A stretch of 64,000 bases of DNA from Candidatus Micrarchaeota archaeon (lineage in GTDB: Archaea; Micrarchaeota; Micrarchaeia; Anstonellales; Bilamarchaeaceae): assembly GCA_964490215.1 (NCBI GenBank), contig CAZBAM010000003.1, positions 1,489 to 65,488 on the forward strand, given 5' to 3'. The first letter of the stretch is position 1. Each line of letters begins with the position of its first letter. Positions 42,968-63,165 of this stretch are shown in pieces. The notes under the pieces were generated by a model that saw only the letters and a list, made by a program, of their open reading frames with translations, was not told the DNA's origin and searched no databases. Position numbers and translations under genes: made by a program.

Positions 42968-43123
42968 ACTTTCTTTTCCCAATGCAATCTTAAATTCCTT
43001 TCGTTTTAGATAGCGTTGCATACTCCTTCTCCCCAGCCTTACTGGCGCTGATGCCGCGGCCGCCCCCCAACGTCATAACCCGGCATGCCATCGTTTTAAT
43101 ATTTTGCCCACACAATATGCTAC

Positions 43124-43696: not shown

Positions 43697-43697
43697 C

Positions 43698-47019: not shown

Positions 47020-47420
47020 AGGTCCTTCTGGATACGGCCGCCCTCATTGACCTCCTGAAAGGCGAGAAGAACGCAATGGCAAGGGCCGAGGAGCTGAAGA
47101 AGGAAGCCGCCCTCTACACGACCACAATCAACATCTACGAGATTCTGAGGGGCATCAACCTCCTTCCGCCAAAAAGCAAAGAGCGGCATATCCAGGCATT
47201 ACGGGTCCTCATCAGCAACCTCAACCTCCTGGGCATAGACGCGGACGCTGCCGCCGCTGCGGCTTCCGTGTATGCGGAGTTGCGAAAAAAAGGGACTGAA
47301 ATAGACCCTCCGGACTACCTGATTGCCGGCGCCTGCATTGCAAACGGCATCGGCCTCATCCTCACAAGAAACGAAAAGCACTTCGGGAGGATAAGCGGGC
47401 TGAAGGCGGTCACGTACTAG
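46998..47420 (+). CDS. vapC: VapC PIN-domain toxin (start ATG 46998 or CTG 47016)
   Basis: VLLDTAALID, INIYEI, DYLIAG, TRNEKHF. Confidence 0.9.
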   Translation: MERGGFLKVLLDTAALIDLLKGEKNAMARAEELKKEAALYTTTINIYEILRGINLLPPKSKERHIQALRVLISNLNLLGIDADAAAAAASVYAELRKKGTEIDPPDYLIAGACIANGIGLILTRNEKHFGRISGLKAVTY

Positions 47421-48124
47421 ATTATGGCCAGCCCGGCCGGGCCGACCTTCAGTGGTATCAGGATGTCCACATCCGGCACCCTCAGGAAGAACTTCCCGCC
47501 AGCGTCCGATATGGTGCATATCCCGTCCGCGCCCTGCTCCAGTGTGCTCAGCAGCTGCTTGTCGTGGACGCCTTCGTCTATGAGGTAGATGGTCGTCCCG
47601 TTGGCGGTCCTGAGCCTCCCCTCTATGACGCTTAGGAATTTCCTTATGGACTCCTTGGGATTATAGAGCACGAACGTGGAGAGGGTGTCAAAGACCACCC
47701 GCATCCGCTTGCCTGCGCTCACCTTCATGGCCTCGTTGAGCATGAGCGAGATGTCGTTGAGCGCGCCCGGGCCTGAGACCATCATGACCTTCGGGCTGCT
47801 CTCCACCGGCCTTCCCAGCGTGGCGCTGTAGCAGTCTATGAAAAAGACGTTCGGCTTTTCCAGGCTTATGCCCAGCGTTGCCGCCTTTTTTATTACGTCC
47901 GCGGGCGAGGAGTTGCCACAGAGTATGTACGCGTTCTCGCCGGTTCCCGCCGCACCGGCGAAATGGTACGCGAGCGCAGCCTTCTCCATCCCGCTGGGCC
48001 CGACTATGATGATGTTGCCTGGATTGACGAACCCGCCCTCCAGTATCAGGTCCAGGTCCGCGATGCCGGTGCAAAGCCTGTTCTTCCTGAGAATAGGCGT
48101 CTGCTCGTTCACTCCCAGGTCCAT
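47417..48124 (-). CDS. KaiC/RAD55-like RecA-superfamily ATPase with degenerate Walker A
   Basis: TGIADLD..LEGG, GPSGMEKA, FIDCYS, VVFDTLST; start ATG 48124. Confidence 0.85.
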   Translation of the reverse strand: MDLGVNEQTPILRKNRLCTGIADLDLILEGGFVNPGNIIIVGPSGMEKAALAYHFAGAAGTGENAYILCGNSSPADVIKKAATLGISLEKPNVFFIDCYSATLGRPVESSPKVMMVSGPGALNDISLMLNEAMKVSAGKRMRVVFDTLSTFVLYNPKESIRKFLSVIEGRLRTANGTTIYLIDEGVHDKQLLSTLEQGADGICTISDAGGKFFLRVPDVDILIPLKVGPAGLAII

Positions 48125-48222
48125 GGCAGTAATGGCGTTGGAAGTTTTATAAAGGTCTGCGTTCCCCCAGGCTGCCGCCCAAGGGTAAAACTGGCAGGAA
48201 AAAGAAGGGCGCTGTAAACAAG

Positions 48223-48334
48223 CCCAAGCGCCTTGCCGGGCTATTCTTATTCTTGCCTTCGGGACGCCCTTTGGGCACAGGACCCACCATCCCTTCGGGA
48301 TGGTTCCCCCGTGCCAGTTCCTGGAGGCATTTCT
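48223..48334 (+). repeat. Dispersed structured repeat, copy A
   Basis: Blocks GCGCCTTGCCGGGCTA.TCTTAT / GACGCCCTTTGGGCACAGGACC / CACC-ATCCCTTCGGGAT-GGTTCCCCCGTGCC / TGGAGG shared with copies B-D. Confidence 0.9.
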
Positions 48335-48390
48335 TGTGGAAAAAGAGCATGGAAAAAAGAAGAGGAAAAAAGAAGAAAACCGAGGGGAAC

Positions 48391-48774
48391 TCAGCAGAAT
48401 GTGGTTGCCGATATGCTTGATGCACCGCCGCCTGCCATGAGCGCGTTTATGATTATCGGCGTCAGCACGTATATGAGCGCGCCGATTATCGCGCCGGTCA
48501 TCATGGCAGTCGCCCACACAGTCGCCCTTGCCCTGGTTTCTGCACCAAGCACCTGGCCGATCGCGTAAGTCGCACCAGCAAGCAGTATCATTATCATGAT
48601 TGCGCCGCCGAGGAACACCCTGGACGCGTCACAGAGCCCCCTGAGGGCCGAAGATATGCCCGTGGCTGCATCAGCTGTAGCAAACGACACTGAGAGCAGG
48701 TTGACGGCAAATACCGCCACTATCAGGTATTTCCCCCAGGTGTTCGCCTTTCGCATAAAATCAACGATATCCAT
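48391..48774 (-). CDS. TrbC/VirB2-like pilin, copy 1
   Basis: Signal ending VSFA, two hydrophobic helices separated by GAETRARA, paired Cys. Confidence 0.7.
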   Translation of the reverse strand: MDIVDFMRKANTWGKYLIVAVFAVNLLSVSFATADAATGISSALRGLCDASRVFLGGAIMIMILLAGATYAIGQVLGAETRARATVWATAMMTGAIIGALIYVLTPIIINALMAGGGASSISATTFC

Positions 48775-48929
48775 CCGTTCACCTTTGATTGGTTTTGAGG
48801 GCTATATGAAAGTGAATATTTAAAAAGGATAATCCGGCCGCGAAAAATGGGTGAAACGGGGAAAAAGAAGATGAAAAAAGGGCACGGAAAAAAAGAAGAG
48901 GAAAAAAGAAGAAGGGCGCTGTAAAACCA

Positions 48930-49168
48930 CTCAGGCGCCTTGCCTGGTTAGTCTTATTTTTAACTTCTAGACGCCCTTTGGGCGCAGGACCGGATGATGT
49001 CAGGACCGACGCTTCGATCTTGAGCATGTTCATGAACGTTGCGACGTTCATGACAACGACGCTTCGTTCGCTGGTCCACAGAACGGTGCGCCGTTCTGCC
49101 GGACCCACCGTCTGCGGACGGTTCCCCCGTGCCGATTCTTGGAGGTATCTCCTATGGGATTCTACAAA
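48930..49168 (+). repeat. Dispersed structured repeat, copy B (with 114-nt hairpin insert)
   Basis: Same conserved blocks; insert 48992-49105 flanked by GGACC. Confidence 0.9.
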
Positions 49169-49197
49169 TCCAAAAAAAGAAGAAAACGGAGGGGAAA

Positions 49198-49578
49198 TCA
49201 GCAGAAGTTGGTCGCCTGTATGCTCCCGGCGCCTCCTCCTCCAAGGAGCGCGTTTATGACTATCGGCGTCAGCATGTATATGAGCGCGCCGATTATCGCG
49301 CCGGTCAGCATCGCCGTGGCCCACACGGTCGCCCTTGCCCTGGTCTCCGCCCCGAGAATCTGGCCGATGGCGTAAGTCGCACCAGCAAGCAGTATCATTA
49401 TCATGATTGAGCCGCCGAGGAACACCCTGGACGCATCACAGAGCCCCCTGAGGGCCGACGATATGCCAGTAGCTGCCGTGCCTGCAAACGACACTGCGAG
49501 CAGATTGACGGCAAACACCGCAACTATCAGGTATTTCCCCCAGGTGTTCGCCTTTCGCATCAAATCAACAATATCCAT
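49198..49578 (-). CDS. TrbC/VirB2-like pilin, copy 2
   Basis: Near-identical paralog of 48391-48774; same upstream TTTTTAAATA box. Confidence 0.7.
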   Translation of the reverse strand: MDIVDLMRKANTWGKYLIVAVFAVNLLAVSFAGTAATGISSALRGLCDASRVFLGGSIMIMILLAGATYAIGQILGAETRARATVWATAMLTGAIIGALIYMLTPIVINALLGGGGAGSIQATNFC

Positions 49579-49651
49579 CTGTTCACCTTCGGCTGGTTGT
49601 GGGGATTAAGTGGGAGTCAATATTTAAAAACATTCAGCCGAGAGTAAGCGC

Positions 49652-51151
49652 ATGGATTTTCTCCAGCGGCTGCTGAAAAGTGACCGCAGGGTCCTGTTCA
49701 TCCTGATATGCGCCTACCTCGTCACACACCTTGCGGTGCTCCAGTTCCTGCCATTCGTGCGCGACGAGGCCATATACGCGGTGATGGTGACGGAGCAGGC
49801 CGATTCCCCGTCGCTCATCCCGACGTTTTTCGGCTATCCGGTGAGTTGGAAGCCAGCCCCTTTCTTCTGGCTCTACGTGCCGTTCTCAAAGCTGCTTTCC
49901 GGCTTCCTTCCGCTTGAGGTCGTTTATCGCCTCCCATCGCTTCTTTTCGGGCTTGCGACGGTCCCGCCGCTCTACCTGCTGCTGCGTAACGCGGGCGTCA
50001 GCCGCGCCCTGGCGTTCTGCTCCCTGCTCATATTCACCTTTTCCTACGTTTCGCTCTACCCACAGACGGCCATGCTTGCCGATTCCCCGGCGTTCTTCTT
50101 CATATGCGCGTCGCTCTGGCTCTACACCGAAAAGCGCCTCCCGGCGTGGCGCTTCCTTGCCGCAGGCGTGCTTGCGTTCGCTGCTTTCTTCATAAAGATA
50201 GTGCTCGCGTTCATGGTCCCGGTGCTCGCCGTTGCGTGGTTCTGTGCCGGCCGGAAGGAAACGCTCCGCAACCCGCTCTTCCTCGCCTCGCTGGCTGCCG
50301 TTCCGGTCGCGCTGGCGCTGCACGCCGCGCTGCTGCAGGGCGCAGGCCTGCTCGGCGAGTCCTATGCCAGCAACGTAGTAAACCACTTCATGAGTCCGGC
50401 TGGCGTTGAGGGCCAGTTCGGGGTGGTCCTGGGCTCCCTCATGATGTTCATCTCGTCCTGCGGCATCTGGTTCCTGCTATCGCTTTTCGGCTTCTGGAAA
50501 AACTGGCGGAGCCAGCCGTTCATGGCTGCGTGGTACGCACTGCTCGTGTTCCCTGTCCTCACAGGCTTCTTCATGCCGTGGTACTACCTGCCGGTGATGC
50601 CAGCGGTGGCTTATTTCGCCGCGCTGGCCGTGCTGAAATGGGAAGGCGTGGAGAAGGCGGACCTGTTCTTCGTCATCTTCCTGTCGCTCGCCCTGGCTGC
50701 CACCGTGGTCCTGCTCTGCGCCGGCTATGTATTCACGCGGAACGACTTCCTCCCTGAAAAGGAGGCCGGCCTGATGCTTGCCGGGAAGGAGAACGTGCTC
50801 ATCGCCGGCGACTACGCGCCGGGCGTGTTCGCCTACAAGATGCTGACCGAGCGCCGGGAGCTCGGCCGCAGCCTGGATTTCGGCCTCGTGGTTTTCCCGC
50901 GGAACACGTCCAACGGGACCGTGGCCCAGTTCCTCAGCGACTACTATTCGGCATCCGCGCCGGTCGTCCAGGGGTCGTTCAGCCCGCTTTTCTCGCTCAA
51001 TGCCATTTTCAGGAAGGACACCAGCATAGCGGGATTCGGCTGCGTGGCGCTCGTCGGCCGCTACAGCGTGGTCCCGCCCGGCGCAGAAATACTCTATAAC
51101 CGCTCCTACGTAGTAATATACCGTCCCACCCCCGGGCTGTTGACGAAGTGA
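49652..51151 (+). CDS. GT-C fold membrane glycosyltransferase (ArnT/PMT-like)
   Basis: RDEAIYA, KPAPFFW, YRLPSLLFG; many TM helices. Confidence 0.85.
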   Translation: MDFLQRLLKSDRRVLFILICAYLVTHLAVLQFLPFVRDEAIYAVMVTEQADSPSLIPTFFGYPVSWKPAPFFWLYVPFSKLLSGFLPLEVVYRLPSLLFGLATVPPLYLLLRNAGVSRALAFCSLLIFTFSYVSLYPQTAMLADSPAFFFICASLWLYTEKRLPAWRFLAAGVLAFAAFFIKIVLAFMVPVLAVAWFCAGRKETLRNPLFLASLAAVPVALALHAALLQGAGLLGESYASNVVNHFMSPAGVEGQFGVVLGSLMMFISSCGIWFLLSLFGFWKNWRSQPFMAAWYALLVFPVLTGFFMPWYYLPVMPAVAYFAALAVLKWEGVEKADLFFVIFLSLALAATVVLLCAGYVFTRNDFLPEKEAGLMLAGKENVLIAGDYAPGVFAYKMLTERRELGRSLDFGLVVFPRNTSNGTVAQFLSDYYSASAPVVQGSFSPLFSLNAIFRKDTSIAGFGCVALVGRYSVVPPGAEILYNRSYVVIYRPTPGLLTK

Positions 51152-51155
51152 CCGC

Positions 51156-51827
51156 ATGATTTCCGTGATAATCCCAACCTACAACGAGCGCGGCAACGTG
51201 GAACTGCTGGTTCCCAGGCTGGCTGCGCTCCTGCCGCAGGGCAGCGAGATAGTAGTGGTGGACGACAATTCGCCCGACGGCACGGCCGCAGTGGTGGAGG
51301 CGATGTCAGCGAAATTTCCAACGGTCCGGCTCGTCAGGCGCGAAAGGAAGGCTGGCCTTACATCCGCGGTCGTCGCAGGCGTTTCCGCAGCTAAGGGCGA
51401 CTTGATAATCGTGATGGACGGGGACCTTTCCCATCCGCCCGGGGCTGTGCCGCTGCTGGCTTCCGCGCTGAAGGGCTGCGACCTTGCGGTGGGCAGCAGG
51501 CTGGCCGAAGGCGGCAGGGTGGAGAGCTGGCCGCTTCACAGGAAGCTGATATCACGTGGTGCAGAACTGCTCGCCCGCGTCCTCCTGGGCGTGAAGCTGT
51601 CGGATCCGATGAGCGGATTTTTCGCGATCCGCAAGGGCGTCTTCATGAAAACAAGGTTCAGGGCCAGGGGCTACAAGATTCTCCTGAACATACTCGCTGA
51701 CAATCCGCGCATCAGGGTGAGGGAAATCCCGTACGTCTTCAGCGACCGGCATTCAGGCAGGACCAAGCTGGGCGCTGCTGAGATGGCGACCTACGTATCC
51801 GACCTCATACGCCTGCGGTTCTCCTGA
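51156..51827 (+). CDS. GT2 polyprenol-phosphate glycosyltransferase (DPM1-like)
   Basis: ISVIIPTYNE, VVDDNSPDGT, MDGDLSHPP, DPMSGFF, GYKILL, DRHSGRTKL. Confidence 0.93.
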   Translation: MISVIIPTYNERGNVELLVPRLAALLPQGSEIVVVDDNSPDGTAAVVEAMSAKFPTVRLVRRERKAGLTSAVVAGVSAAKGDLIIVMDGDLSHPPGAVPLLASALKGCDLAVGSRLAEGGRVESWPLHRKLISRGAELLARVLLGVKLSDPMSGFFAIRKGVFMKTRFRARGYKILLNILADNPRIRVREIPYVFSDRHSGRTKLGAAEMATYVSDLIRLRFS

Positions 51828-51958
51828 CCGGAAGCGGGAAACCCTAAACCGGAAACGGGTGGAAACGAGCGGAGAGGCGTGGAAAGGAGCGGAAACGGGC
51901 AGAAACCGGCGGGAACTGGAAACCTGAAACGGAAAACGGGAAACCGGAAGCGGCATAC
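51828..51958. repeat. Purine-rich degenerate tandem spacer (GGAAAC(G/C)GG-like units)
   Basis: Roughly a dozen imperfect GGAAAC units between two glycosylation genes. Confidence 0.65.
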
Positions 51959-52082
51959 CCGCGAATCGCGTTCCGGCAATGGCTTTCGTGAACTACACAC
52001 AGCTGAAGCCGTCTTCTTGTGCTCCGCTCAGGATGGATTTCCCGGGCCTACCTCATTTAAAGTTACGCCCTCCATCCTTTCC

Positions 52083-53951
52083 ATGGAAGTTCTCGGTGTG
52101 CCCGGCCGGCCGTTCCTGCTGAACGCGGCCATTACCCTCCTCCTGACCGTGGCCATATTCTACCCTGCGCTGGCCTCGTTCGGCCAGGTGCTTCTGGGGG
52201 CCGAGGACATCCGGCTTTTCCTGTGGCTCTTCTGGCATTTCAGCAACAGCCTAAACAACGGCACCAACCCGTTTTATGCAGGCGAGATATTCCATCCCTA
52301 CGGGATTTCCCTTTCCATGACCACCCTGTCCCCGCTCCAGGCCATCGCCTACTGGCTGCTTCCTGCGTCGTTCGGCCCTTTCGGGAAGATAACGCTCCTG
52401 CAGGCGCTTTCATTCGTCCTCGGCGGAATCTTCGCCTTCTGCCTCGCGTACAGGTTCGCGAAATCCTTCCTGCCTTCCTTTTTGGGCTCGGCGCTGTTCA
52501 ACTTCTCGGTGTATCATTCGGAAAAAGCCCTCCACCACCTCAACTACAGCATGGCGTTCCCGTTCCTCGCGCTCTTCTTCCTGTGCTATTTCGCCGCCGC
52601 GGAGCGCAGGAAGCACGGCATCCTGCTCCTGTCCGCCTCGCTCCTGCTGCTCGCACTCAACGAGATGACCGTCGCAGTGATGGCCGGCTTCGTGGTTTTC
52701 CTGGACGTGTTCCGGCACTATCTCGCCCGCTCGCGCGTGAAGCTCCTCACAACACGCAATGCCGCCATCCTGGGCGGGGCCGTGGTGCTGTCAATGGCAG
52801 CCAACGAAGCCCTCGCCACCCTGGCAGCCCCCCAGCTCCTGCTTTACACGCTCCCCCCGCTCCCGTTTCTTGCCGCATGCCTGGCCGTGCTCGGGCCGGC
52901 GAATGCGGTCGCGGCAGAGAAAGCCGAAGGCAGGCTGCGGTCGCTCGTCCTCGCATCGCTGCCGGTCGCCGCCTACACAGTCCTGCTGGCCCTCCAGCCC
53001 TCCTATGCCATAAGCCATGACAACGCGATATCCAACTCGCTGTTCTACGCAGTGCCGGTGGAATACCTCGTAATCCCTTCTGATTTCCAGGCAGTGGCCC
53101 ACGCAGGGGTTTTCAGCGGCCTCCAGGCCGGCAGCGAGGCCGGCGTCTATGCTGCCGCAGGCCTGCTCCTTCTGGTGCTTTCCCTGGTCATTCCCGGCGC
53201 ATCGCGGGACGAGGAATATTTCAGGAACCTTTCCCTGCTCTGCCTGCTCTTTTCGTTCCCCATAATCTCAGAAGGCGGGCTCACGCTTCTGACGGTCCTT
53301 CCCCAGCCCCTTTTTCCCCTTCTCGGCGTGCTGCGGGTGCCGGTCCGCTTCATGGTGTTTTCACTGCTTTTCCTTTCGCTCGCCTCGGCCCTGCTCGCGG
53401 TGCGCCTGCTCAGCTTCAGGCACGGCAGGGCGCTGGTGGCCGGGCTGTCAGTCCTCGTGCTGGCGGTCCAGTGGCCTGCCATGGGCGGCTTCACCTTTGA
53501 CGGAAGCGTGCCTGCGTTCTATTCCGGCCTGGCAGGCACGACAGGCCTGACCGGCATGACAGGTATGACAGGCATGACCGGCATAGAAAAGAAGGTCTTC
53601 CTATACCCGGACATGGACTACTATTCGCTGCTCAACGAGGTGTATTACCAGACCGTGCACGGCAACAGCCTGTCCGCAGGCATCGTCTCCCGCCAGCCTT
53701 TGTCAGGCAATCCGCTCTATTCGCTGTATTCGTCCCCGAACGTTTCGCGCAGCGACGCGCTGGCCGTGGCGAAGTCCCTGGGATACGACTACGTGGTGTT
53801 CCACAAGACGGCTTGCTCAAACTCCAGCGGATGCTTCCGCGGAATATTCGTGCAGGACCAGGCGCTCATGGACGCCCTGGCGAGGGAAAAGCCGCCGGGC
53901 GCGAAGGTGTACGAAGACGATTCCATCGTCGTCTATGCGTGCTGCTCATGA
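52083..53951 (+). CDS. Multi-pass membrane protein, probable GT-C glycosyltransferase
   Basis: EDIRLFLWLFW, IFHPYGISL, LRVPVRF; about 12 TM helices; GMT tandem repeat near C-terminus. Confidence 0.7.
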   Translation: MEVLGVPGRPFLLNAAITLLLTVAIFYPALASFGQVLLGAEDIRLFLWLFWHFSNSLNNGTNPFYAGEIFHPYGISLSMTTLSPLQAIAYWLLPASFGPFGKITLLQALSFVLGGIFAFCLAYRFAKSFLPSFLGSALFNFSVYHSEKALHHLNYSMAFPFLALFFLCYFAAAERRKHGILLLSASLLLLALNEMTVAVMAGFVVFLDVFRHYLARSRVKLLTTRNAAILGGAVVLSMAANEALATLAAPQLLLYTLPPLPFLAACLAVLGPANAVAAEKAEGRLRSLVLASLPVAAYTVLLALQPSYAISHDNAISNSLFYAVPVEYLVIPSDFQAVAHAGVFSGLQAGSEAGVYAAAGLLLLVLSLVIPGASRDEEYFRNLSLLCLLFSFPIISEGGLTLLTVLPQPLFPLLGVLRVPVRFMVFSLLFLSLASALLAVRLLSFRHGRALVAGLSVLVLAVQWPAMGGFTFDGSVPAFYSGLAGTTGLTGMTGMTGMTGIEKKVFLYPDMDYYSLLNEVYYQTVHGNSLSAGIVSRQPLSGNPLYSLYSSPNVSRSDALAVAKSLGYDYVVFHKTACSNSSGCFRGIFVQDQALMDALAREKPPGAKVYEDDSIVVYACCS

Positions 53952-54110
53952 TGCGTGCTGCCCCTGGCGCACAACCATGGAGCCCCTGTCCCGGGCCTTC
54001 TGGAGCGCCCGGGCGTTCGGGATGGAGGCGGGGATCATGGCTGTTGCGCGCCCGTCGGACGCCCGCGGGTTCAGGACGTTTTTAAACTGCTTCCACACTT
54101 AAAATCCGCT

Positions 54111-55544
54111 ATGAGAGTCGCGCTTGTCAGCCCTCCACCAATAGCAGGCACCAGGTATACGCGGGAGGGCCGCTGCCAGGAGAAAGAGGCAGTCCTCGGC
54201 GCGGTCAAGCCGCCACTCACCCTGCTTTACCTGGCCAGCATACTGCGCAAGGCCGGCCACGAGGTCCTGTTCCTGGACGCCAACGCGAAGCGGATGGGTG
54301 CGGCAGAAATGCAGGCGCGGCTCGCACGGTTCGGCCCGGCAGTTGTGATGTTCGCCACGTCCACGCCTACAATCGCGGACGACATGGCAGCCATGAAGGA
54401 TTCGCCCGGCATCGTATTCGCATTCGGCCCGCACGTGAAGGTGCTGCACGCGGACGTGCTCAGGGAATACGGCTTCCTGCGCGGCGTCGTCACTGGCGAG
54501 CCGGAAGCTGTCGCCGGGCCGCTCTGCGACGCGCTGGCGAAAGGCAGGGGCCTGGGCCGCGTCCGTGGCATCGCCTACCGGGCCGGCAGGGATGGCGACG
54601 GACGCCTCAGGCTGACGAAACCGTCCGTGGTGTCCGACATAAATTCACTTCCGGCGCCTGCCCTTGACCTGCTGGACTTCGGCGATTACAGGCTGCCGAA
54701 CAACGGCGAGCCGTTCTCCGTGGTGGAGATTTCGCGCGGCTGCCAGTTCAGCTGCGCGTTCTGCATCGTGCCGGTGCTGCGGCCAGGCTTCAGGGTTGCG
54801 GAAAAATCGCCGAAGGCAATCGTGGACGAGATGGAGCGCACGAAAAACTCGTACGGGGTGCGGTATTTCTACCTCCTGCGGGACTCCACGATGAAGTCCG
54901 GCGACCGGCAGATAAGCGGGATTGCCGGCGAGCTCATCCGGCGGAAGCTGGGCGTAAGGTGGATGACGAACACCCGCATTGACGCCGTGTGCGCGAAGGC
55001 GCTGAAAAAGATGAAGCAGTCCGGCTGCTGGCTCCTGGCCGCCGGCATAGAGGCTGAGGACGACGACGCGCTGTCCGCCGTCCGCAAGGGCTTCAGGCAC
55101 GGCATCGTCGCCGGGAACGTGGCGAAAATAAGGAAGAGCGGAATCAGCCTGCTCCTGTTCTTCATATTCGGTTTCGCCGACGACACGCCGGAGCGGATGC
55201 GGCGCAGGGCCGAATACGCCGCAGGCCTTGACGCTGACTTCGCGAACTTCTACCCGCTCGTGCCCTATCCGGGAACCCGCGTCTTCAGCCAATTCGTCCG
55301 GTCGGCCGGCAGGAATCCGGAATGGGAAAAATGCGACTACTCGCACTACGCCCTTTCAGCCCAGACCGGCCTGGCTGAGGCTGCGGTCCTTTCAGCGGTT
55401 TCTGACGCGTACCTGAAATTCTACGCGAAGCCCGGAAGGCTCGCGCGGCTCATGATGAAACTCCGGGAAGGGGATTGGCGCCTGATTCCGCTGCTTTCCA
55501 GCGGCGTGAGGTTCGCGTGGCGCGTCCTTGCCCGCGCCCCCTGA
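54111..55544 (+). CDS. B12-binding radical SAM protein
   Basis: PPLTLLYLAS.L, FGPH, GEPE, SRGCQFSCAFC (CxxxCxxC), GIE, PYPGT; start ATG 54111. Confidence 0.9.
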   Translation: MRVALVSPPPIAGTRYTREGRCQEKEAVLGAVKPPLTLLYLASILRKAGHEVLFLDANAKRMGAAEMQARLARFGPAVVMFATSTPTIADDMAAMKDSPGIVFAFGPHVKVLHADVLREYGFLRGVVTGEPEAVAGPLCDALAKGRGLGRVRGIAYRAGRDGDGRLRLTKPSVVSDINSLPAPALDLLDFGDYRLPNNGEPFSVVEISRGCQFSCAFCIVPVLRPGFRVAEKSPKAIVDEMERTKNSYGVRYFYLLRDSTMKSGDRQISGIAGELIRRKLGVRWMTNTRIDAVCAKALKKMKQSGCWLLAAGIEAEDDDALSAVRKGFRHGIVAGNVAKIRKSGISLLLFFIFGFADDTPERMRRRAEYAAGLDADFANFYPLVPYPGTRVFSQFVRSAGRNPEWEKCDYSHYALSAQTGLAEAAVLSAVSDAYLKFYAKPGRLARLMMKLREGDWRLIPLLSSGVRFAWRVLARAP

Positions 55545-55680
55545 CGACTGTGATGACGAGGCTGCGATTACGAGGCTGTGATGGATGCTGAAGAGGCTGT
55601 AATGCTGAGACTGCGATGACAAGACTGCGATGATGTGATAATAAGGCGTGCCGATGAGGCTGTGATGTCGAGGTTGTGAT
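55545..55680. repeat. Degenerate tandem spacer ((G)AGGCTGTGATG-like units)
   Basis: About ten imperfect 11-13-nt units between radical SAM gene and next gene. Confidence 0.7.
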
Positions 55681-57733
55681 GATGAAGCGCCTGCACCTGA
55701 TGCTGGCCGGGCTGGTCCTGCTGGCTGCATTGTTTTTTGCGCTGGCATCCATGTCCCTCCAGGTCCCCGCTCTCTTCCGCATCTCGTTCGGCACCCCGGA
55801 ATTCACCGAATCCGGCTTTGCGCAGGTCCTCTTCTTCGTGCTCCTGGCCGCCGGCGCATTTTTCACTGGCCGGGCTGCCATCCTGCTCCTGCTTCCAGGA
55901 AAGCACGAGGCAAAGCACGACAACAGCAGAGAATGCGATGCAAAGCACGACGGAAAGCACGACGCAAAGTACGATGCAACGCACGACGGAACGCACGACC
56001 GGATGGTCTTCCCGGCATCGGTCTTCCTGGGGTTCGGCATCGCAGGCTTCATTGCCATGCTGTCCGGCCTCGCCGGCCAATTCACTCTCGCCCTGCCGCT
56101 GTTCGGCGTCATCGCTGCAGCGTCGCTGCTCTTCCTTCTCAGGAAAAACGCGCTGGCCGCTGAGCTGCCTGCCATGCCCCTGGCCCTGGCGGCCGGGATG
56201 CTCGCGCTCTCCGCGTTGCTTGCCGCCGCCTTCCCCATCCTGTCCCCTGACGCGTGGTTCTACCACGCGGAAATGAGCAGGATACTGTTCCAGGAGCACG
56301 CGTTCCCGCAGATTGCCGGCACAGGCCTCGGCCTCGGCATCTCCTCCAACTACCCGCCGCTGTTCCCTTCGCTGGGCGCGCTCGCACTGCCGCCCGCGGG
56401 TGCGTCCAGCGGCGCGTCCAGCGGCCCGCCCGGCGATTCGTTCAACGACTTCGGCCTGCGGCTCGTTTCCCGGTTCATCGCGCTGTTCCTCGCGCTCCCG
56501 CTTTTCATCCTCTCAAAAAAGCTCTTCAGGGAAAACGCCACTGCGCTTTTCTTTTTCTTCTGGGCGCTGGCGAACCTCTTCATCGTAATCAACGCCAGCA
56601 GCTGCTACCCGCTGCTTTTCGCCTTCTTCGTGCTGTCCTTCCATTACTGGCTCGCTTTCCTTGAAAGCAAAAGCCCCGGCGCGCTCGCGCTGTCCTCGCT
56701 GTTTTTCGGCTTCTCCCTCCTGTGCTCCTACCTCGCCCTGGCGTTAGCCCCTGTCTTCCTGGTCTTCTGGCTTTCGGAAAACAAATACCGGCTGGCCGGC
56801 TGGCGCGCCCCCTGCGCCTTCTTCCTCATCGCCTTGCTCCTGTTCAGCCCCTGGGCGGTGCGGACCTTCCTGCTGACCGGCGACCCCATCTACCCTGCCA
56901 TCGCCTCGCTTTTCGCAAAACCCGGGTCGCCGCTCCATGTCACCGTGGAGCACCTGGCCGTTTCCACGCTCGGCAGCGGCATCGTGAGCCGCATGCAGTT
57001 CTTTTTCACGATACTCCCGTTCCCCCTGTTCGGTGCCGCAGCCCTGCTGTTCTCCATCCGTGCCGCCTGGAAGGCGCGGCCGGGCCTGCGGGAAAGCCTC
57101 ACCGGGCTGCTTTCCGGCCCCTACGCCCTGTGGTTCCTCTATCCGCTCCCCCTGCTCCTCATACCCTCGTTCGTTTCCCCCAAGTATGCTGTGCTCCTCC
57201 TGCTGCCAGCAGCCCATCTGACAGCGCGGGCATTCGGCTCGCTTAGGAACAGCCCGCAGCTGTCCTTCGCGTTCAGGTTCATGTGCATGGCAGTCGTTCT
57301 CATAGCAACCCTCGCGTTCTTGCTCCCTGTCCACTGCCTCTTCTGCGGCTACGAGGCCGTGAGGATGGTTCCACACGGCAACGGCATGGCAGACTTTTTC
57401 GTGGCCGCGAATTCCCTGCAGGGCCGCATCGCAGCCTTTGACATGCCGACATACTACCTCTCCGAAGGGCGCCAGAAGATAATCGCGATTGACGAGGGCG
57501 CAATCTTCAGCCGGCTGGCTGCCGCTGATTCCAACCAGGCGCAGGCCTGCATCCTCAAACAGGCCGGTGCGGACTACGTCCTGCTGCCGCTCGGGCTGAT
57601 GCCGCAGGAGCAGTTCGCCATCCAGCTTTTCCAGAACCTCTCCAACCCGAAGCTGGTCCCGGTGATGGGGTTCCACGGCCCCTGGCAGAACGCCAGCCAG
57701 CTGACACTTTACAGGATATCCGGCTGCGGTTAG
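55676..57733 (+). CDS. GT-C-like membrane glycosyltransferase with KHD tandem insertion
   Basis: DAWFYH, NYPPLFP, GDPIYP; many TM helices. Confidence 0.75.
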   Translation: MMMKRLHLMLAGLVLLAALFFALASMSLQVPALFRISFGTPEFTESGFAQVLFFVLLAAGAFFTGRAAILLLLPGKHEAKHDNSRECDAKHDGKHDAKYDATHDGTHDRMVFPASVFLGFGIAGFIAMLSGLAGQFTLALPLFGVIAAASLLFLLRKNALAAELPAMPLALAAGMLALSALLAAAFPILSPDAWFYHAEMSRILFQEHAFPQIAGTGLGLGISSNYPPLFPSLGALALPPAGASSGASSGPPGDSFNDFGLRLVSRFIALFLALPLFILSKKLFRENATALFFFFWALANLFIVINASSCYPLLFAFFVLSFHYWLAFLESKSPGALALSSLFFGFSLLCSYLALALAPVFLVFWLSENKYRLAGWRAPCAFFLIALLLFSPWAVRTFLLTGDPIYPAIASLFAKPGSPLHVTVEHLAVSTLGSGIVSRMQFFFTILPFPLFGAAALLFSIRAAWKARPGLRESLTGLLSGPYALWFLYPLPLLLIPSFVSPKYAVLLLLPAAHLTARAFGSLRNSPQLSFAFRFMCMAVVLIATLAFLLPVHCLFCGYEAVRMVPHGNGMADFFVAANSLQGRIAAFDMPTYYLSEGRQKIIAIDEGAIFSRLAAADSNQAQACILKQAGADYVLLPLGLMPQEQFAIQLFQNLSNPKLVPVMGFHGPWQNASQLTLYRISGCG

Positions 57734-57920
57734 CCGGCTCTGCAGGAAAGCTCAGGCGCCTTGCCGGGCTAGTCTTATTTCTGGCCTTCCGGTGACTGCG
57801 GTCACCAGCTGTCGCGCTGCTGCGCAACATAGGACGCCCTTTGGGCACTGGACCCACCGTCTGCGGACGGTCCCCCCGTGCCGGTTCATGGAGGTATTTA
57901 TCAGGGATTCCTGCAAAGTC
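57731..57920 (+). repeat. Dispersed structured repeat, copy C (with ~45-nt hairpin insert)
   Basis: Begins at the TAG stop of the upstream gene; same blocks; insert GGTGAC-TGCG-GTCACC. Confidence 0.9.
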
Positions 57921-57963
57921 CCGAATCGCAAGCGCTTTTATTTTGTCGGGCATACTGTTTTGC

Positions 57964-59688
57964 ATGAACCCGGACCCTCGCATGCAGCCGGACATAAGTA
58001 TGCCTCCGGAACCCGGCATGCACCTGGACAGCCGTATGCCCCCGGAACCCCGCGTGCGCCCGGAAACCGGCACGCACCCGAACCACCCAGCGCAGGCTTT
58101 CCTTCCGGTCAAACTCCCTTCTTTACCTACCCTCGTTTTTTACGGCGTCGTGCTTCTCCTCCTCATCCAGCTCGTTTCAGGCTACGCCGCCTTTCTCAAT
58201 TACCTCTACTCCAATTCCGGCACCCTCCTCTGGAAGGCTTACGACTGGCCTGATACCGCGGTGATGGTCCAGAGCGTCATGGACGGCCGGTTCTTCTCCG
58301 GATACCCTGAAGCGTTCATCTCAGGCAAATCCATGTTCGGGCTGTTCCCTCCGCTCCTGCCGCTGCTGGCCGGCGTCATAAACCTGGCAACAGGCAACAT
58401 CGCCATCACATTCGTCCTGCTTTCGGCAGTCCTTTCGCTGCTTATCTCATATTTTACAGCGAAAGACTGGCCAGCGTGGCCCCAGAAGCTGATTGTAGTC
58501 CTGTTCCTGTTCTGCTATCCCATCGTCGGCGACGTCCCTCCGTTTATCGTCCGGCTTAGGGAGCTGTTCGCTGTCTTCTTGCTCGTCCTGCTTTTCAAAA
58601 ACCCTTTCCGCATGAAGCCTGAGAAGAACTACCTCGTCCTCGGCCTGTTATTAATCCTCTCGCAGCCGCTGGTGGCTTTGATAGGCCTGCTTTCGTATCC
58701 ATTCCTGAATCCGGAAAACTGGAAGATGAAGGCGGACCTGCGCTCTTTCGCCGTCTTCGCGGCCCTGGCGCTGGCATTCACGGCCACCTACCACCAGCAC
58801 ATCCTCCTGAACCTGCCTGGCGGTGCAGCAAACACCAACTCGCTGGGGCAGTGCCTGCCGAAAGCATATGGAATCCCGCTGGACGCCATGCTCACACTCT
58901 TCAGCGTCCCGGCGCTTTTCTTTTTCGTTTTCTCCAGGAACAACCTCGTAAGGGGCGCATTGCTCCTTTTCACGCTGTGGTGGTTCTCCCTCATCGTCTT
59001 CTCGGAAAATACCGGCCTGCTCTCCCTGCTGGCGTTTCCGGTGAAGGATGATTTCATATTCCAGACGCTCCCGTTCTTCGCGTTTTTCGCCCTGTTCCCG
59101 CCGCCCGGAAAACCGAAGGACGGCAACACGAAGCATCTTTTGGCAATCCTCCTTGTCCTGGCGCTTTTACTGGCCAACATGAAAATAGGGGCCCCGCTCA
59201 ATTCAGCAGGAGCAGAAGAAACGCAGTTCCGGAACATAGCCGGCTCGCTCCAAAACCACTCAAAAATCCTGTCCATGACTTTCTACGCGGTAGAGTCAAA
59301 ACGCGCATTCTTTTTCAGCGGGTCAGACTTCCGGCTGATTTCCGAAATCTTTTTGAAGAAACTGCCCGTCCAGGCTTATTACTCCCCGTTCCAGTCCTTC
59401 TACGATACAGAGGGGCTCTACGCGCCGGTTTCAGGCCTGATCGGTTCAATCAACGAAAAGAACCGTTCCGCATGCGTGTCATTCGCCGGCAACCTCTCCC
59501 GGAAAACCGATTACCTGCACCTTGGCCTGAGCGTCATCCACAACGGCGACCGGGGCTGGTCCGGCCGGGCTTTGGCAAACCTCGCCGACCGTGGTTTCCT
59601 TGAAGAATGCGGCATCAGCCTCGTGGCAGACGAGTCCGGAAACGGCACTGACAAGGTGCAAATCCTCTACCGGTTCAGAACAACCTGA
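57964..59688 (+). CDS. Multi-pass membrane protein, possible GT-C family, with N-terminal 6-aa repeats
   Basis: DWPD, LFPPLLP; TM-rich; MPPEP repeats; ATG 57964 lies after repeat C. Confidence 0.65.
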   Translation: MNPDPRMQPDISMPPEPGMHLDSRMPPEPRVRPETGTHPNHPAQAFLPVKLPSLPTLVFYGVVLLLLIQLVSGYAAFLNYLYSNSGTLLWKAYDWPDTAVMVQSVMDGRFFSGYPEAFISGKSMFGLFPPLLPLLAGVINLATGNIAITFVLLSAVLSLLISYFTAKDWPAWPQKLIVVLFLFCYPIVGDVPPFIVRLRELFAVFLLVLLFKNPFRMKPEKNYLVLGLLLILSQPLVALIGLLSYPFLNPENWKMKADLRSFAVFAALALAFTATYHQHILLNLPGGAANTNSLGQCLPKAYGIPLDAMLTLFSVPALFFFVFSRNNLVRGALLLFTLWWFSLIVFSENTGLLSLLAFPVKDDFIFQTLPFFAFFALFPPPGKPKDGNTKHLLAILLVLALLLANMKIGAPLNSAGAEETQFRNIAGSLQNHSKILSMTFYAVESKRAFFFSGSDFRLISEIFLKKLPVQAYYSPFQSFYDTEGLYAPVSGLIGSINEKNRSACVSFAGNLSRKTDYLHLGLSVIHNGDRGWSGRALANLADRGFLEECGISLVADESGNGTDKVQILYRFRTT

Positions 59689-59733
59689 GGTGCGCGGCAA
59701 TCGCGCCCGTCGCACCGGACGCTGCACCCGTTT

Positions 59734-61170
59734 TTATTTCACCGCGAACAGCTCAATCGGATTCAGTTCGTCAGTCAGCGGGGCCGTCTCAGGCACAGGG
59801 CCGCCGTAGATGGCGTCCGCATGCCTTTCCCTGAACGCGGCCACGTCCTTGTCCGTGGCTATGAGCACGATGTTCTGGGTTTCCATCGGGCCAGTGCCGA
59901 CCGGCAGGATGACCACGTTGGTGAAAACAGATGAGAACGTATTGTAGAGATGGACGAAAGCGCCTGAGTTCTTCCCGTCCAGCGCCGATATAAGGTTGAC
60001 CACCACTACGCCGTCCGGGCCCATCCGGCCCTTGAGTTCTGAGAGGCACTCCCTCGTCGCAAGATTATACGGGATGTTCTTGCCCCTGAACACGTCCATG
60101 AGCACGAGGTCGTATGTCCTGTCCGTCTTCCTGAGGTAGCGCCGGGCGTCGTCTATTATTATCTCCGTCCTGTTGTCATCACTGAGCGAAAAGAACTCCA
60201 CGCCAATCTCCACTGCGCGTGGGTCAATGTCCACGCCGTCCACTGTTACGCCGGGGAAGCTTTTTTTCAGGTCTTCAACCTCGGTGCCGCCCGCAACCCC
60301 GACCACCAGGGCGCGGGCCGGATTTTCCACAAGCTCATAGCCGAGCCTGGTTTTGATCAGATACGGGAATGCCGGCTCCCCCCCGCCGAACTCGCCGCTG
60401 GACGCCGCATTGTCCAGATAAAGCACCCTCGCCGGCTGGCCGCTTACGTTCTGCTCCACTACCGTGAGATGGTAATACCGGGTGTCCTCCGCGTAGATTA
60501 CGCTTCCGTCGAACAGCGGAAAGAACCCGAACTGGGAGACTATTCCTGCCAGGGCGATGAAGGTGACGCCTTCCATGAGCATGAACCCGCCCTTCCTGCC
60601 GGCCAGCCAGCTGGCCCCCAGCATGAGCACTGCTGCCAGTATGAATATGTGCGTCAGGTGCATGTTCGGTATGAGCACGAACCCGGTGCCGAGGGTGCCC
60701 ATGATGCTCCCCACGGTGGAGAGGGCGAATATGCTGCCAGCGCCTTTCCCTTCCTCGCCTGCCTTCGCCGTGAGCTTTATGGCGTATGGCGACACCATCC
60801 CGTAGCAGACGCTCGCCGGGACAAGCACGAAACTGGCGATGACGCTGGCAATCCACAGGTCCAGGAAGGCGGTGAACGGCAGCAGCATCCACCCGATGAA
60901 CGGGACTGCCAGGGTGAACAGGGCCGCGCAGAGCAGGATGGTGGAAAAATGCCTCCTGTCCCCGTAGCGGTCGCCCAGCGAGCCGCCCACGTAATACCCT
61001 GCGCTGAGCGATGCCATGACCAGCCCTATGACTGCCGCCCACGTATATATAGTATTGCCAAGGTAGGGCGCCATCAGCCGGGCGCCTGCCAGCTCTATCA
61101 CCATGGCGCATGCCCCGGATATGAAAACCGCCAGCATGAGGCCGCCTGGCGGCGAAGGTGTTTTTTCCAT
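59734..61170 (-). CDS. Fused membrane domain/spermidine synthase-like SAM-dependent transferase
   Basis: ISGACAMVIEL..RLMAPYLG, FALSTVGSIMG, VDIDP, DDARRYL, LTDELNP. Confidence 0.9.
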   Translation of the reverse strand: MEKTPSPPGGLMLAVFISGACAMVIELAGARLMAPYLGNTIYTWAAVIGLVMASLSAGYYVGGSLGDRYGDRRHFSTILLCAALFTLAVPFIGWMLLPFTAFLDLWIASVIASFVLVPASVCYGMVSPYAIKLTAKAGEEGKGAGSIFALSTVGSIMGTLGTGFVLIPNMHLTHIFILAAVLMLGASWLAGRKGGFMLMEGVTFIALAGIVSQFGFFPLFDGSVIYAEDTRYYHLTVVEQNVSGQPARVLYLDNAASSGEFGGGEPAFPYLIKTRLGYELVENPARALVVGVAGGTEVEDLKKSFPGVTVDGVDIDPRAVEIGVEFFSLSDDNRTEIIIDDARRYLRKTDRTYDLVLMDVFRGKNIPYNLATRECLSELKGRMGPDGVVVVNLISALDGKNSGAFVHLYNTFSSVFTNVVILPVGTGPMETQNIVLIATDKDVAAFRERHADAIYGGPVPETAPLTDELNPIELFAVK

Positions 61171-61267
61171 GACGTCACCTGATGACGAACCCGCCTGGAT
61201 GGACCTGGGACGGACCCAAGACGGTATTCCAGCCAAGTTTTATAAAGTTAATATCCATTCTTCTCCC

Positions 61268-62215
61268 ATGAAGCTCACGCTCTTCTACGACCGCACCGTC
61301 CATGACAACGCCGCCCGCTGCTACGAGCTTGCCAAGGAAGCACGGCAGAAAATCGCCGGCCTGGAGAAGGCGATCGGCGAGACCGGGAAGGAGATAGAAA
61401 AGGCGGAAAAGGGCAGGAAGAAGGAAGCGCGGGTGAAGCGGGAGAGGGAGTGGTACGAAAAATTCCATTTCGCCTTCACCAGCTGCGGGAAGCTGATGCT
61501 CGGCGGCAGGAACGCGCAGCAGAACGACATGCTGTTCGCGAAGCACATGGACGACGCTGACCTTTTCTTCCACGCTGACATCCAGGGCGCCTCGGCGGTG
61601 GTGCTGAAGGGCGGTGCTGAACTGCCCGGCAGCGGGTCCGGGGGCGAAGGAGGTGGCGGGAACGCGGGCGAAGAAGAGCGCAGGGCCACGGGCGAACGAG
61701 GAGGCGACTGGGTCGCTGGCAAAGCAGGGCGCGGGGACGCTGGCGAGGGAGGGCACGGGAACGCGGGTGAAGGAGTTGCCGGGGACGCGGCAAAAAACGA
61801 ACTGGCCGAAGCCGCGCAGTTCGCAGCCAGCTTCTCAAAGGCATGGGTGAACGGCAACGCCAGCGTGGACGTGTATGCGGTCAGGAAAAGCCAGGTCTCC
61901 AAGCACGCCACGGGCGGGTTCATCCCTGTTGGCGCGTTCGCCATCTCCGGCGAGCGGCTGTGGTTCAGGGCGACGAGGCTCGCCCTGCGCATCGGCCTCG
62001 GCGAAAAAGGCATCGCGCTCGTCCCGGAACTCACTGCCATCAACGCAAAACCCGGAACCCCGAAACTCCGGAGCCCGCTCGTGCTCGTGCCGTCGCAGGC
62101 CGGAAAGGACAAGGGCAGCATAGCAAAGTCGCTCGCCAGGCGCTACGGCGTGCATCCGGACGGTCTTCTTGAGCTCCTCCCCAACGGCAGGACGAAAACG
62201 CTGGAAACGCCGTAG
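61268..62215 (+). CDS. NFACT RNA-binding domain protein (DUF814/Rqc2-like C-terminal part) with Gly-rich insertion
   Basis: WYEKFHF, LGGRNAQQND, FFHADIQGAS, EAAQFAASFSKAW, GAFAISGER; start ATG 61268. Confidence 0.88.
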   Translation: MKLTLFYDRTVHDNAARCYELAKEARQKIAGLEKAIGETGKEIEKAEKGRKKEARVKREREWYEKFHFAFTSCGKLMLGGRNAQQNDMLFAKHMDDADLFFHADIQGASAVVLKGGAELPGSGSGGEGGGGNAGEEERRATGERGGDWVAGKAGRGDAGEGGHGNAGEGVAGDAAKNELAEAAQFAASFSKAWVNGNASVDVYAVRKSQVSKHATGGFIPVGAFAISGERLWFRATRLALRIGLGEKGIALVPELTAINAKPGTPKLRSPLVLVPSQAGKDKGSIAKSLARRYGVHPDGLLELLPNGRTKTLETP

Positions 62216-62223
62216 CTGTAGTG

Positions 62224-62372
62224 CTTTGTAGGACTCCCCTGAGAAATACCTCCATGAACCGGCACGGGGGGACCATCCCGAAGGGATGGTGGGTCCTGTG
62301 CCCAAAGGGCGTCTATGGGTCAAATATAAGACTAGCCCGGCACGGCGCCTGGGCTTTCCAGAGAGCCGGCTA
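62224..62372 (-). repeat. Dispersed structured repeat, copy D (inverted)
   Basis: Reverse complement matches copies A and C across all blocks. Confidence 0.9.
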
Positions 62373-62463
62373 GCCGCAGGAGATTTCCGGCAGTTTCATC
62401 GCCGGATGACGGAAAGCTTTATAAATAATGTCTCATTTAGCATGATAACATTGGTGATATCAT

Positions 62464-63165
62464 ATGGGATACAAGAATCTTCTGGCGATTGTAGGCCTGC
62501 TGGTAGTCGCGGCAGGCGTTGTTATGGCGATGTCCGGTGCCACTGTCAGCGGGGGTGGCAGTACGAGATGGTCTGGGAACACCACCGGCAGCAACGTCAC
62601 GCAGGGCGGTAACATCACCGCGCTTAACATAGCCCTCAGTACGCTGACGGGCAAGTGGGCGTCCTACTATGGAAACGTGAGCGGTACCCTCATCCTCGGT
62701 GATGGCACCTCAAGCGTATATAGCTGGACCTGGGCCTCGGGCACAGGCGGCAAGGTATGCCTTTCAACCAACGGCACCCTGGCATTCGCCGGGGCGCATA
62801 ATATGTCGACAAACGGCACGGCTGTTGATACCGCGTGGGGGTTCGCCAGCACCGATGTTGACAGCGCAAACAGCACCTACGGAGGAGCCAAGGGGTGCAA
62901 CCTCACCTTCACTGAGGCTTCCATCATCAACACGACCAACATCAGCCTCAAAGGTTCCAGCACCTTCAACAACTGCCTTATAGGCGCCAATAGCTCGGCC
63001 ATAGCTGCAGGCCAGACAGGCTTGCTGGCATTCTGCACCACTATCCAGCCCCTGACCAGTGGCCTGAATTACAAGGGCCAGGCTGCCAACTACGAGATAA
63101 TGGTGGCCACAAACAATACCGCGCTTGCAACTGAGACGTATTACTTCTACGCCCAACTCAGCTGA
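62464..63165 (+). CDS. Secreted S-layer-like glycoprotein
   Basis: Signal peptide; GGNIT.LN..GKWASYYGNVSG motif; many N-x-S/T sequons; strong CTTTATAAATAA box at ~62417. Confidence 0.7.
   Translation: MGYKNLLAIVGLLVVAAGVVMAMSGATVSGGGSTRWSGNTTGSNVTQGGNITALNIALSTLTGKWASYYGNVSGTLILGDGTSSVYSWTWASGTGGKVCLSTNGTLAFAGAHNMSTNGTAVDTAWGFASTDVDSANSTYGGAKGCNLTFTEASIINTTNISLKGSSTFNNCLIGANSSAIAAGQTGLLAFCTTIQPLTSGLNYKGQAANYEIMVATNNTALATETYYFYAQLS

Follow-up and report, generated by a model that had tools for sequence, protein, structure and literature searches.

A candidate MITE-like mobile element with a conserved, strand-specific fold in Candidatus Micrarchaeota

Within a 64-kb stretch of archaeal DNA (contig CAZBAM010000003.1; hereafter the window) we characterized four copies, A to D, of a structured non-coding repeat, together with five more copies from two Candidatus Micrarchaeota metagenome-assembled genomes (L001 and L004), two metagenome contigs (L005 and L007) and a relative of the window organism (L010). 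The repeated unit measures ~145 base pairs (bp) without inserts, rising with inserts to 258 bp in copy B and 185 bp in copy C. We tentatively interpret it as a previously undescribed non-autonomous mobile element that resembles a miniature inverted-repeat transposable element (MITE) and carries a structured RNA module, a reading that we prefer while holding it to be somewhat short of probable. As judged from the distribution of its copies, the element appears to have spread between Micrarchaeota genomes.

The four copies lie at the places where a first-pass annotation of the window had reported them, with their blocks in identical order and in clean alignment. Each of three patterns (GACGCCCTTTGGGCNCNGGACC, GGTYCCCCCGTGCCRRTTCNTGGAGG and CAGGCGCCTTGCCGGGCTAGTCTTAT, allowing up to 3 mismatches) matched the window four times, three times on the forward and once on the reverse strand, against an expectation of zero and no match in 100 dinucleotide-preserving shuffles. 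No further copy was found in the 64 kb by nhmmer with all filters off or by a covariance model. The ordered blocks described as shared are present throughout but are not identical in every copy, as A carries the variants CAAGCGCC, GGCTATTC and GGAGGCATTT and B carries GCCTGGTTAG, GGGCGCAGG and GTGCCGATTC. The extent first assigned to the copies proved too short, the unit starting 17-18 nucleotides (nt) upstream of ARGCGCC and ending ~38 nt past GTGCC (Table 1). Both reported forms of the terminal hairpin were recovered (ACCATCC-CTTCG-GGATGGT in A and D, ACCGTC-TGCG-GACGGT in B and C), as were extra hairpin modules at two variable positions, 42 nt long in C and 109 nt long in B. The insertion in B comprises three hairpins, two of them UGCG-capped, and is bracketed by GGACC (48987-48991 and 49101-49105); that in C is formed by GGTGAC-TGCG-GTCACC and GCGC-TGCT-GCGC hairpins. 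Neither insert occurs elsewhere in all the DNA compared and, both being unique, their status as repeats in their own right was rejected; these peripheral hairpins may represent tolerated expansions at two loop positions.

Alignment of all nine copies gave a sharp 5' end at GGCKCU and a 3' end ~38 nt past GUGCC. Between the anchors the copies differ in length only by the two insertions, by a hairpin tip extended by 3 nt in A and D, and by indels of one base in D and L005. Mean pairwise identity, calculated over six independent lineages, is 0.27 in the 10 nt upstream of GGCKCU and 0.91 in GGCKCU itself, followed by 0.68 in an A-rich segment, 0.89 in ARGCGCC..GGGCUAG, 0.59 in a U-rich loop (0.57-0.68 for loops overall), 0.99 in the 27-nt block RGACGCCCUUUGGGCACAGGACCCACC, 0.74 in the hairpin tip and 0.98 in the 14-nt block GGUYCCCCCGUGCC, and then drops to 0.42-0.46 in the 38-nt tail and 0.30 past it. 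The 27- and 14-nt blocks are thus 98-99% identical across genomes whose orthologous proteins are ~52% identical. Since loops and tails have drifted while these two blocks stayed near-invariant, the ~105-nt core is under strong purifying selection; simple recent spread was rejected as the cause because every part would then be equally similar. With the core preserved while its surroundings decay, something presumably reads its sequence, be it a protein, enzymatic or not, or its own fold. Two further hypotheses on the extent of the unit were set aside: the tail as a partial second repeat unit was significant in L004 only, and the upstream flank of C and D as a tail remnant, left by a tandem array or a circle junction, was not significant.

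The proposal that selection acts on single-stranded, strand-specific structure is supported by compensatory G-C/A-U changes in the terminal hairpin, by 37 G.U cells and by UNCG caps confined to one strand. Structures were scored on the nine-sequence alignment with the two insertions removed. Four alternative structures all pair ~93% of cells and, as they score alike, the 5' half is unresolvable with nine sequences and only the 3' hairpin domain (GGCAC-A-GG / ACCC / [ACCRUC-UNCG-GAYGGU] / UYC / CC-C-GUGCC) is robust. The lower stem of this domain is paired in all copies, its sole change being A-U to G-U in B. In the upper stem a pair reported to covary does so, with G-C in five copies, A-U in three and an A.C intermediate in L010. 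Changes on both sides were seen in three pairs, and the covariation score was 0.142 compared with 0.115 in shuffles, values that derive from nine sequences only. The 5' domain has several competing GC-rich pairings, in which the palindromic GGCGCC pairs with either the upstream GGCKCU or the downstream GG-A-CGCC; in the upstream pairing a double change turns G-C into A-U in L010, and a perfect stem of 8 bp forms in L007. The variable hairpin likewise has two possible registers. A long-range helix proposed by RNAalifold (GCCGGG/CCCG(U)GC) showed disruptive changes only and was dropped in favour of GGCAC/GUGCC.

The asymmetry between the strands is pronounced, with 93.0% of cells paired in the sense and 77.8% in the antisense orientation, the lower pairing of the reverse complement following from the G.U cells (37 of 243), which become C.A on the other strand. 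Full sense copies scored 69-123 bits with the covariance model, the split 3' part of B scored 30 bits, and antisense sequence never exceeded 14 bits. Hairpin caps, those of the inserts included, are almost all UNCG (UGCG/UUCG) on the sense strand only, with UGUU in L007 and UGCU in one hairpin of C as exceptions, and the core folds are very stable (-30 to -40 kcal/mol). A palindromic site in duplex DNA would have its half-site spacing shifted by the 3 extra nt of the A and D tip; to a hairpin they would be harmless.

That the structured repeat is a real family reaching beyond the window was confirmed by the copies in L001, L004, L005, L007 and L010. The element can be sought with the patterns GACGCCCTTTGGGCNCNGGACC or GGACCCACC-N(6-24)-GGTYCCCCCGTGCC. 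An exact-pattern scan of 185,579 species-representative genomes yielded two true homologs (L001 and L004) and two chance matches in bacterial coding DNA, and metagenome contigs, scanned with a pattern drawn from the element's opposite half, gave two homologs (L005 and L007) and one chance match. Viral contigs, plasmids and phages searched for the element gave no match. The PMT_2 protein of the window has one non-identical relative among 5.8 billion clusters (83% identity), encoded on contig L010, which bears an orthologous copy of C at the same place (2719-2822) without the 42-nt insertion. The TctA-like permease of the window (43698-44855, -) is 52% identical to the TctA adjoining the L004 copy, and those TctA homologs that have a source name were mostly labelled Candidatus Micrarchaeota. 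The window organism is thus a Micrarchaeota relative, and the element occurs in a clade of Candidatus Micrarchaeota (DPANN archaea).

Copies in other genomes argue that the repeat is not local duplication debris. We give next to no credence to this explanation or to that of a small protein-coding gene, as at least four genomes besides this one carry copies, and in unrelated contexts, even though A/B and C/D share flanks, so that some copies arose by segmental duplication. Coding was suggested by an antisense frame (HGGTVRRRWVLCPKGV...RLARHGA) present in most copies and by insertion lengths (given in that count as 114, 42 and 3 nt) that are multiples of three, but the frame meets stops in B and a frameshift in L005, no start codon is consistent, third codon positions are invariant while the stems covary, and all six frames are broken or inconsistent. 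Concatenated six-frame peptides returned nothing from 5.8 billion proteins, a search that was uninformative.

The element was also compared with known RNAs. Rfam 15 gave no match to the window at gathering thresholds, in agreement with the original impression that no known RNA family is involved, and permissive thresholds applied to the window and to short stretches gave noise only (Fibro-purF 18.6 bits, snoR9 16.5 bits, SAM-IV 13.9 bits). The best Rfam match of the element, snoR9 (RF00065), was non-significant (16.5 bits against a gathering threshold of 90) and was treated as noise: the C-rich internal loop of its 5' hairpin aligns with the 3' hairpin domain of the element, but the element has no C/D boxes and shows ACA after the hairpin in L001 only. 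ARAGORN called no tRNA or tmRNA in the window, L001, L004, L005 or L007. Inspection by eye, the only means applied here, found no conserved motifs in support of H/ACA, C/D, K-turn, hammerhead, HDV-like, twister or hairpin-ribozyme RNAs.

Related genomes differ in whether they carry the element, in a pattern that points to insertion polymorphism between them. The closest TctA ortholog of L004 (84%, in L013) has no element at the same junction, six syntenic Micrarchaeota loci located via TctA orthologs (L013-L018) are without a copy, two of them having the pilin/KaiC/PMT arrangement of the window, and L010 has no counterpart of copy D. The element is also repeated enough to break short-read assemblies: independent Logan assemblies of the window organism break within C and D (contigs L008, L009, L011 and L012), with L008 and L009 starting in D.

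Flanking direct repeats accompany five of the six independent events, in that the bases immediately before the 5' boundary appear again 38-40 nt past GUGCC (AAAAT in L004, TTTTTC in L005, TTTTCT in L007, AATC, as AAATC/TAATC, in L001, AAAAAGAAG in A and AAAAAAGAAGAA in B). Because the flanks are A- or T-rich, each repeat is weak singly (shuffle p-values of 0.016-0.28 per copy), and it is the combined probability (~0.002 by Fisher combination) together with the constant position that makes chance an unlikely source. The ends of the element, which read GGCTCTGTAGAAAACC ... GGATTTTTAYRRGCC, also show complementarity, between a 5' segment GGCUCUGUAGAAAACC and the 3' end GGAUUUUUAYRRGCC, with shuffle p-values of 0.003 in L001, 0.037 in C, 0.047 in L004 and 0.05 in L005. 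Copies sit in A/T-rich intergenic DNA in either orientation. Those of the window are in part related by duplication: A and B form one tandem duplication together with genes for proteins of 126/127 amino acids, and the ~30-nt upstream flank common to C, D and L010 indicates that D is a copy of the C locus with its flank, with no independent insertion.

Three options had been put forward in the first-pass annotation, namely a multi-copy non-coding RNA, an mRNA stability or termination element, and a non-autonomous element mobilized as single-stranded DNA. The non-autonomous mobile element is the best supported of these, through its patchiness, direct repeats and assembly breaks, whereas the HUH/IS200-IS605/RAYT mechanism attached to it was not supported. 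An HUH transposase recognizing folded single-stranded DNA, whether acting on a PATE-like IS200/IS605 derivative or on a REP/RAYT repeat, would fit the strand-specific folding, the G.T-tolerant pairs and the hairpins near both ends, and IS200/IS605 elements are reported in >65% of Micrarchaeota genomes (PMC13343696). We regard this route as highly improbable, given that no target motif is fixed and that the direct repeats are copy-specific. Left flanks end GAAG, AGCC, TAGC, AATC, AAAT, TTTC and TTCT and share no conserved tetra- or pentanucleotide target, and beside the copies lie direct repeats particular to each, which the IS200/IS605 family does not generate. The two hairpins are moreover unlike each other, the copies are not inverted REP doublets, and the cognate TnpA, RAYT or TnpB gene that had been suggested was not found in a Pfam scan of the window's open reading frames (ORFs). 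IS200/IS605-derived PATEs and the omega-RNA right ends of TnpB elements do share with the element an essential single-strand folding and non-autonomous copies of 100-250 nt; the element differs from them in having flanking direct repeats and no fixed target motif, in having no adjacent tnpA or tnpB found, and in giving no HEARO-like or omega-RNA-like Rfam match.

In the MITE-like element that we favour, a transposase encoded elsewhere would cut the target with a stagger of ~5 bp, the value to which the flanking direct repeats point, and paste the element in. Within the window genome, segmental duplication would also have multiplied the copies, A and B along with the 127-amino-acid gene and D from the C locus. 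This accounts for the boundaries, the patchiness, the flanking repeats, the complementarity of the ends and the assembly breaks. Membership of the MITE class is partly established, the small non-coding size and the apparent insertion polymorphism both being found. A MITE-like origin leaves the interior conservation peak and the strand-specific pairing unexplained, and a folded RNA module was added to the interpretation for this reason. The core would be kept because the transcribed strand works as such a module, its transcription either starting at a bidirectional TATA box nearby or reading through from the gene upstream; another possibility is that mobility requires the core as a folded single strand.

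Several observations count against a MITE-like element. Its best-conserved part is internal and not at the termini, which is unusual for a MITE, and the inverted termini are imperfect (with G.U-type mismatches) and not significant in five of the nine copies (A, B, D, L010 and L007). Low-complexity DNA rich in A or T surrounds the flanking repeats, whose apparent length runs from 4 to 12 nt, cross-pairing the flanks of different copies sometimes matches 4-7 nt, and no flanking direct repeat was found at C, D or L010. As a filled and empty pair, L004 and L013 are not clean, L004 having ~115 extra nt and a duplicated hairpin. The Pfam scan of window ORFs detected no transposase, integrase, reverse transcriptase, TnpB or RAYT, the loci of the other copies likewise yielded no mobilizing enzyme, an autonomous element with the same ends was not found in the 220 kb of DNA searched, and in the exact-pattern scan other genomes apparently have one copy each.

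The element behaves most like MITEs and like bacterial structured interspersed repeats (REP/BIME, ERIC, BOX and Correia). Like MITEs, which are reported in ~20% of archaeal genomes and at high density in some DPANN genomes (PMC11602168), it is small, non-coding, intergenic, found in either orientation, patchy between relatives and multi-copy in one genome, with short direct repeats beside most independent insertions and termini that are partly inverted in some copies. Unlike MITEs, it has its conservation peak in the interior, weak inverted termini, strand-specific pairing with many G.U pairs, UNCG caps, no known parent insertion sequence and a single copy in most genomes. With REP/BIME, ERIC, BOX and Correia/CREE repeats, which are often co-transcribed with flanking genes, it shares a length of 100-160 nt, stable folds and modular stems gained or lost between copies. 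Those repeats are bacterial and number tens to hundreds of copies per genome; the element has no sequence or Rfam similarity to them and, unlike them, keeps two blocks invariant across genomes that are ~52% identical at the protein level. For an element of this kind, the invariant interior, strong strand asymmetry, UNCG-capped modular stems, low copy number and DPANN host are all unusual.

The same conservation and fold could instead mark small trans-acting non-coding RNA genes, that is, an accessory small RNA (sRNA) or protein-binding RNA of ~110-150 nt spread by duplication and horizontal transfer, with the direct repeats and inverted ends incidental products of T-run terminators and a closing stem. 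We consider this doubtful, while allowing it appreciable weight. It would suit the very strong selection on the core (identity of 0.98-0.99 in the blocks against 0.27-0.46 outside), the strand-specific pairing, the UNCG caps, peripheral stems that expand as in functional RNAs, and the single copy in other genomes. A run of five U follows GUGCC after 23-30 nt in L001, L004 and L005, but conservation of this run does not extend to the window copies, and it pairs with the 5' A-rich segment. Sense transcription would be possible for every copy, C/L010, L004, L005 and L007 standing behind a co-directional gene. A TATA-like box 51-59 nt upstream, shared with a divergent gene and palindromic in A and D, is seen only in A, D and L001. 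No promoter lies within the conserved unit, however, and the 10 nt upstream of GGCKCU are at random-level identity, which weighs against an ordinary sRNA gene; C and L004, which start right after a stop codon, leave a promoter no room. Presence and absence at syntenic loci and assembly breaks would also be unexpected for such a gene.

A module acting in cis within the transcripts of neighbouring genes, as a 3'-end stabilizer, processing signal or terminator comparable to REP/BIME, ERIC or Correia repeats, is in our judgement unlikely. A gene on the same strand lies directly upstream at four of the seven loci (C/L010, L004, L005 and L007), neighbouring genes mostly encode membrane or secreted proteins, and the very stable core folds would serve this role. 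Four of seven nonetheless amounts to no orientation bias: the genes on either side of A and of B run antisense to them, and D and L001 occupy divergent or convergent regions. Simple stabilizers, moreover, need no invariant blocks of 27 and 14 nt, and no consistent gene family was found upstream or downstream of the copies. Downstream genes are unrelated or on the other strand, unlike what a riboswitch or 5' leader would require. The surface, pilin and glycosylation setting noted earlier applies to the window, where PMT, GT2, radical SAM, PMT_2 and two tandem membrane proteins are encoded, and does not generalize, the copies in other genomes having unrelated neighbours.

A bolder version, to which we assign a small probability, is that the 105-nt core is a functional RNA travelling as a mobile unit between DPANN genomes, either as a self-processing or catalytic RNA or as the RNA that works with an enzyme, RNA-guided or reverse-transcribing, whose gene lies elsewhere. 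If true, the invariant 27- and 14-nt blocks would be an active or recognition site and not a transposase-binding site, and with an enzyme partner the element would be archaeal and either like a short interspersed nuclear element (SINE) or guide-RNA-bearing. The specific case of an RNA-mediated SINE-like retroelement, or of a non-coding RNA that accompanies an RNA-guided enzyme (omega-RNA-like or bridge-RNA-like) with its fold kept for enzyme recognition, is very unlikely. It draws on the selection on RNA-sense structure, on flanking repeats of 4-12 nt in homopolymer-rich A/T targets and on the element having no promoter of its own, but no reverse transcriptase, TnpB, IscB or IS110-type gene was found near any copy, there is no 3' A-tail, and no variable guide-like segment stands beside a constant scaffold. 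No SINE-like retroelements of this kind are known in archaea.

The genomes of Micrarchaeota and other DPANN archaea are small and streamlined, and their non-coding RNAs and mobile DNA are almost uncharted. The MITE-like element that we favour would be a short structured unit exchanged among such genomes; from its effect on assemblies and its position among genes for surface proteins and glycosylation, it may help to reshuffle these genes. Its covariance model, exact boundaries and nine copies provide a defined RNA candidate for a poorly studied lineage.

Table 1. Coordinates of the four copies and associated features in the window
Feature	Position	Strand	Remarks
Copy A, full element	48208-48353	+	GGCGCTG ... 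GTGCC plus 38-nt tail
Copy A, core	48208-48315	+	covariance-model match, 108.9 bits
Copy A, 3' hairpin domain	48274-48315	+	tip ACCATCCCTTCGGGATGGT at 48286-48304
Copy A, direct repeat AAAAAGAAG	left 48199-48207, right 48354-48362	+	shuffle p = 0.016; A/G-rich low-complexity context, repeat length uncertain
Copy B, full element	48915-49172	+	covariance-model matches at 48915-49013 and 49098-49130, split by the 109-nt insertion
Copy B, insertion (109 nt)	48992-49100	+	in internal loop of 3' hairpin domain
Copy B, direct repeat AAAAAAGAAGAA	48902-48913 and 49173-49184	+	
Copy C, full element	57736-57920	+	covariance-model match, 87.7 bits, at 57736-57882
Copy C, insertion (42 nt)	57789-57830	+	3' of first variable hairpin
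Copy C, 3' hairpin domain	57844-57882	+	
Copy D, full element	62223-62367	-	covariance-model match, 105.4 bits
Copy D, core	62261-62367	-	
Copy D, 3' hairpin domain	62261-62302	-	
Upstream flank (~30 nt) common to C, D and L010	C 57706-57735; D 62368-62397	C +; D -	in C, last residues and stop codon of PMT_2
Palindromic TATA-like box TTTATAAA	48146-48153	.	55 nt upstream of A (sense); also serves divergent KaiC-like gene; putative promoter
Palindromic TATA-like box TTTATAAA	62418-62425	.	51 nt upstream of D (sense); between D and divergent 233-amino-acid gene; putative promoter

The perfect palindrome TTTATAAA occurs six times in the window, at the two sites of Table 1 and at 32161, 32671, 35363 and 61239; the two sites examined (48146-48153 and 62418-62425) both lie in divergent intergenic regions, and the palindrome may be a bidirectional archaeal TATA box. 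Copies A and B adjoin tandem genes for near-identical proteins of 127 and 126 amino acids (48391-48774 and 49198-49578, both -), each with a signal-like N-terminal segment and two hydrophobic helices. These proteins belong to no Pfam family, an exact look-up of them returned no record, and their likeness to VirB2/CedA1-type pilins was judged by eye only; they adjoin a KaiC-like ATPase (47417-48126, -). The A-rich flanks of A and B reflect T-rich terminators on the coding strand of these genes. Copy C begins 2 nt past the stop codon of the PMT_2 gene (55676-57733), and the membrane protein downstream of it opens with a repeated proline-rich motif, MNPDPRMQPDISMPPEPGMHLDSRMPPEPRVRPE (57965-58110, +). 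Adjoining copy D is a secreted protein of 233 amino acids (62464-63165, +) with many N-x-S/T sequons, which fits the glycosylation theme of the region.

Upstream of the L005 copy (413-450) there is a motif, AAGCGC(C)..GCGCTT with TTTTATTTT after it, that recurs in similar form downstream of C (57925-57945) and L010 (2865-2885); it includes the AAGCGCC word of the element and may be a lineage-typical terminator or TATA region. The hairpin duplicated in L004 is CGCCGTTGCGTG..CACGGCCG (L004 4630-4800, L013 8860-9100), and an apparent 3' end of a minus-strand tRNA gene, TCGCCGAGAGCAGGATTTGAACCTGC, adjoins it. A tRNA-Glu-like 5' half lies downstream of the L007 copy (~990-1040). ARAGORN calls none of these tRNA-like pieces in L004, L013 and L007, possibly due to introns.

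Elsewhere in the window, two low-GC stretches (12000-16000 and 42000-44000; 0.48-0.54 against ~0.60) could each be a foreign island, the first of them containing a PIF1-like helicase with a WYL domain (13425-14993). An AbiEii-type nucleotidyltransferase toxin is encoded at 25709-26353 (+) and a PIN-domain (VapC-like) protein at 46920-47420 (+). The PIN gene breaks an otherwise conserved KaiC-PmbA-TctA synteny, and L016 and L017 have PIN and VapB genes at the same spot.

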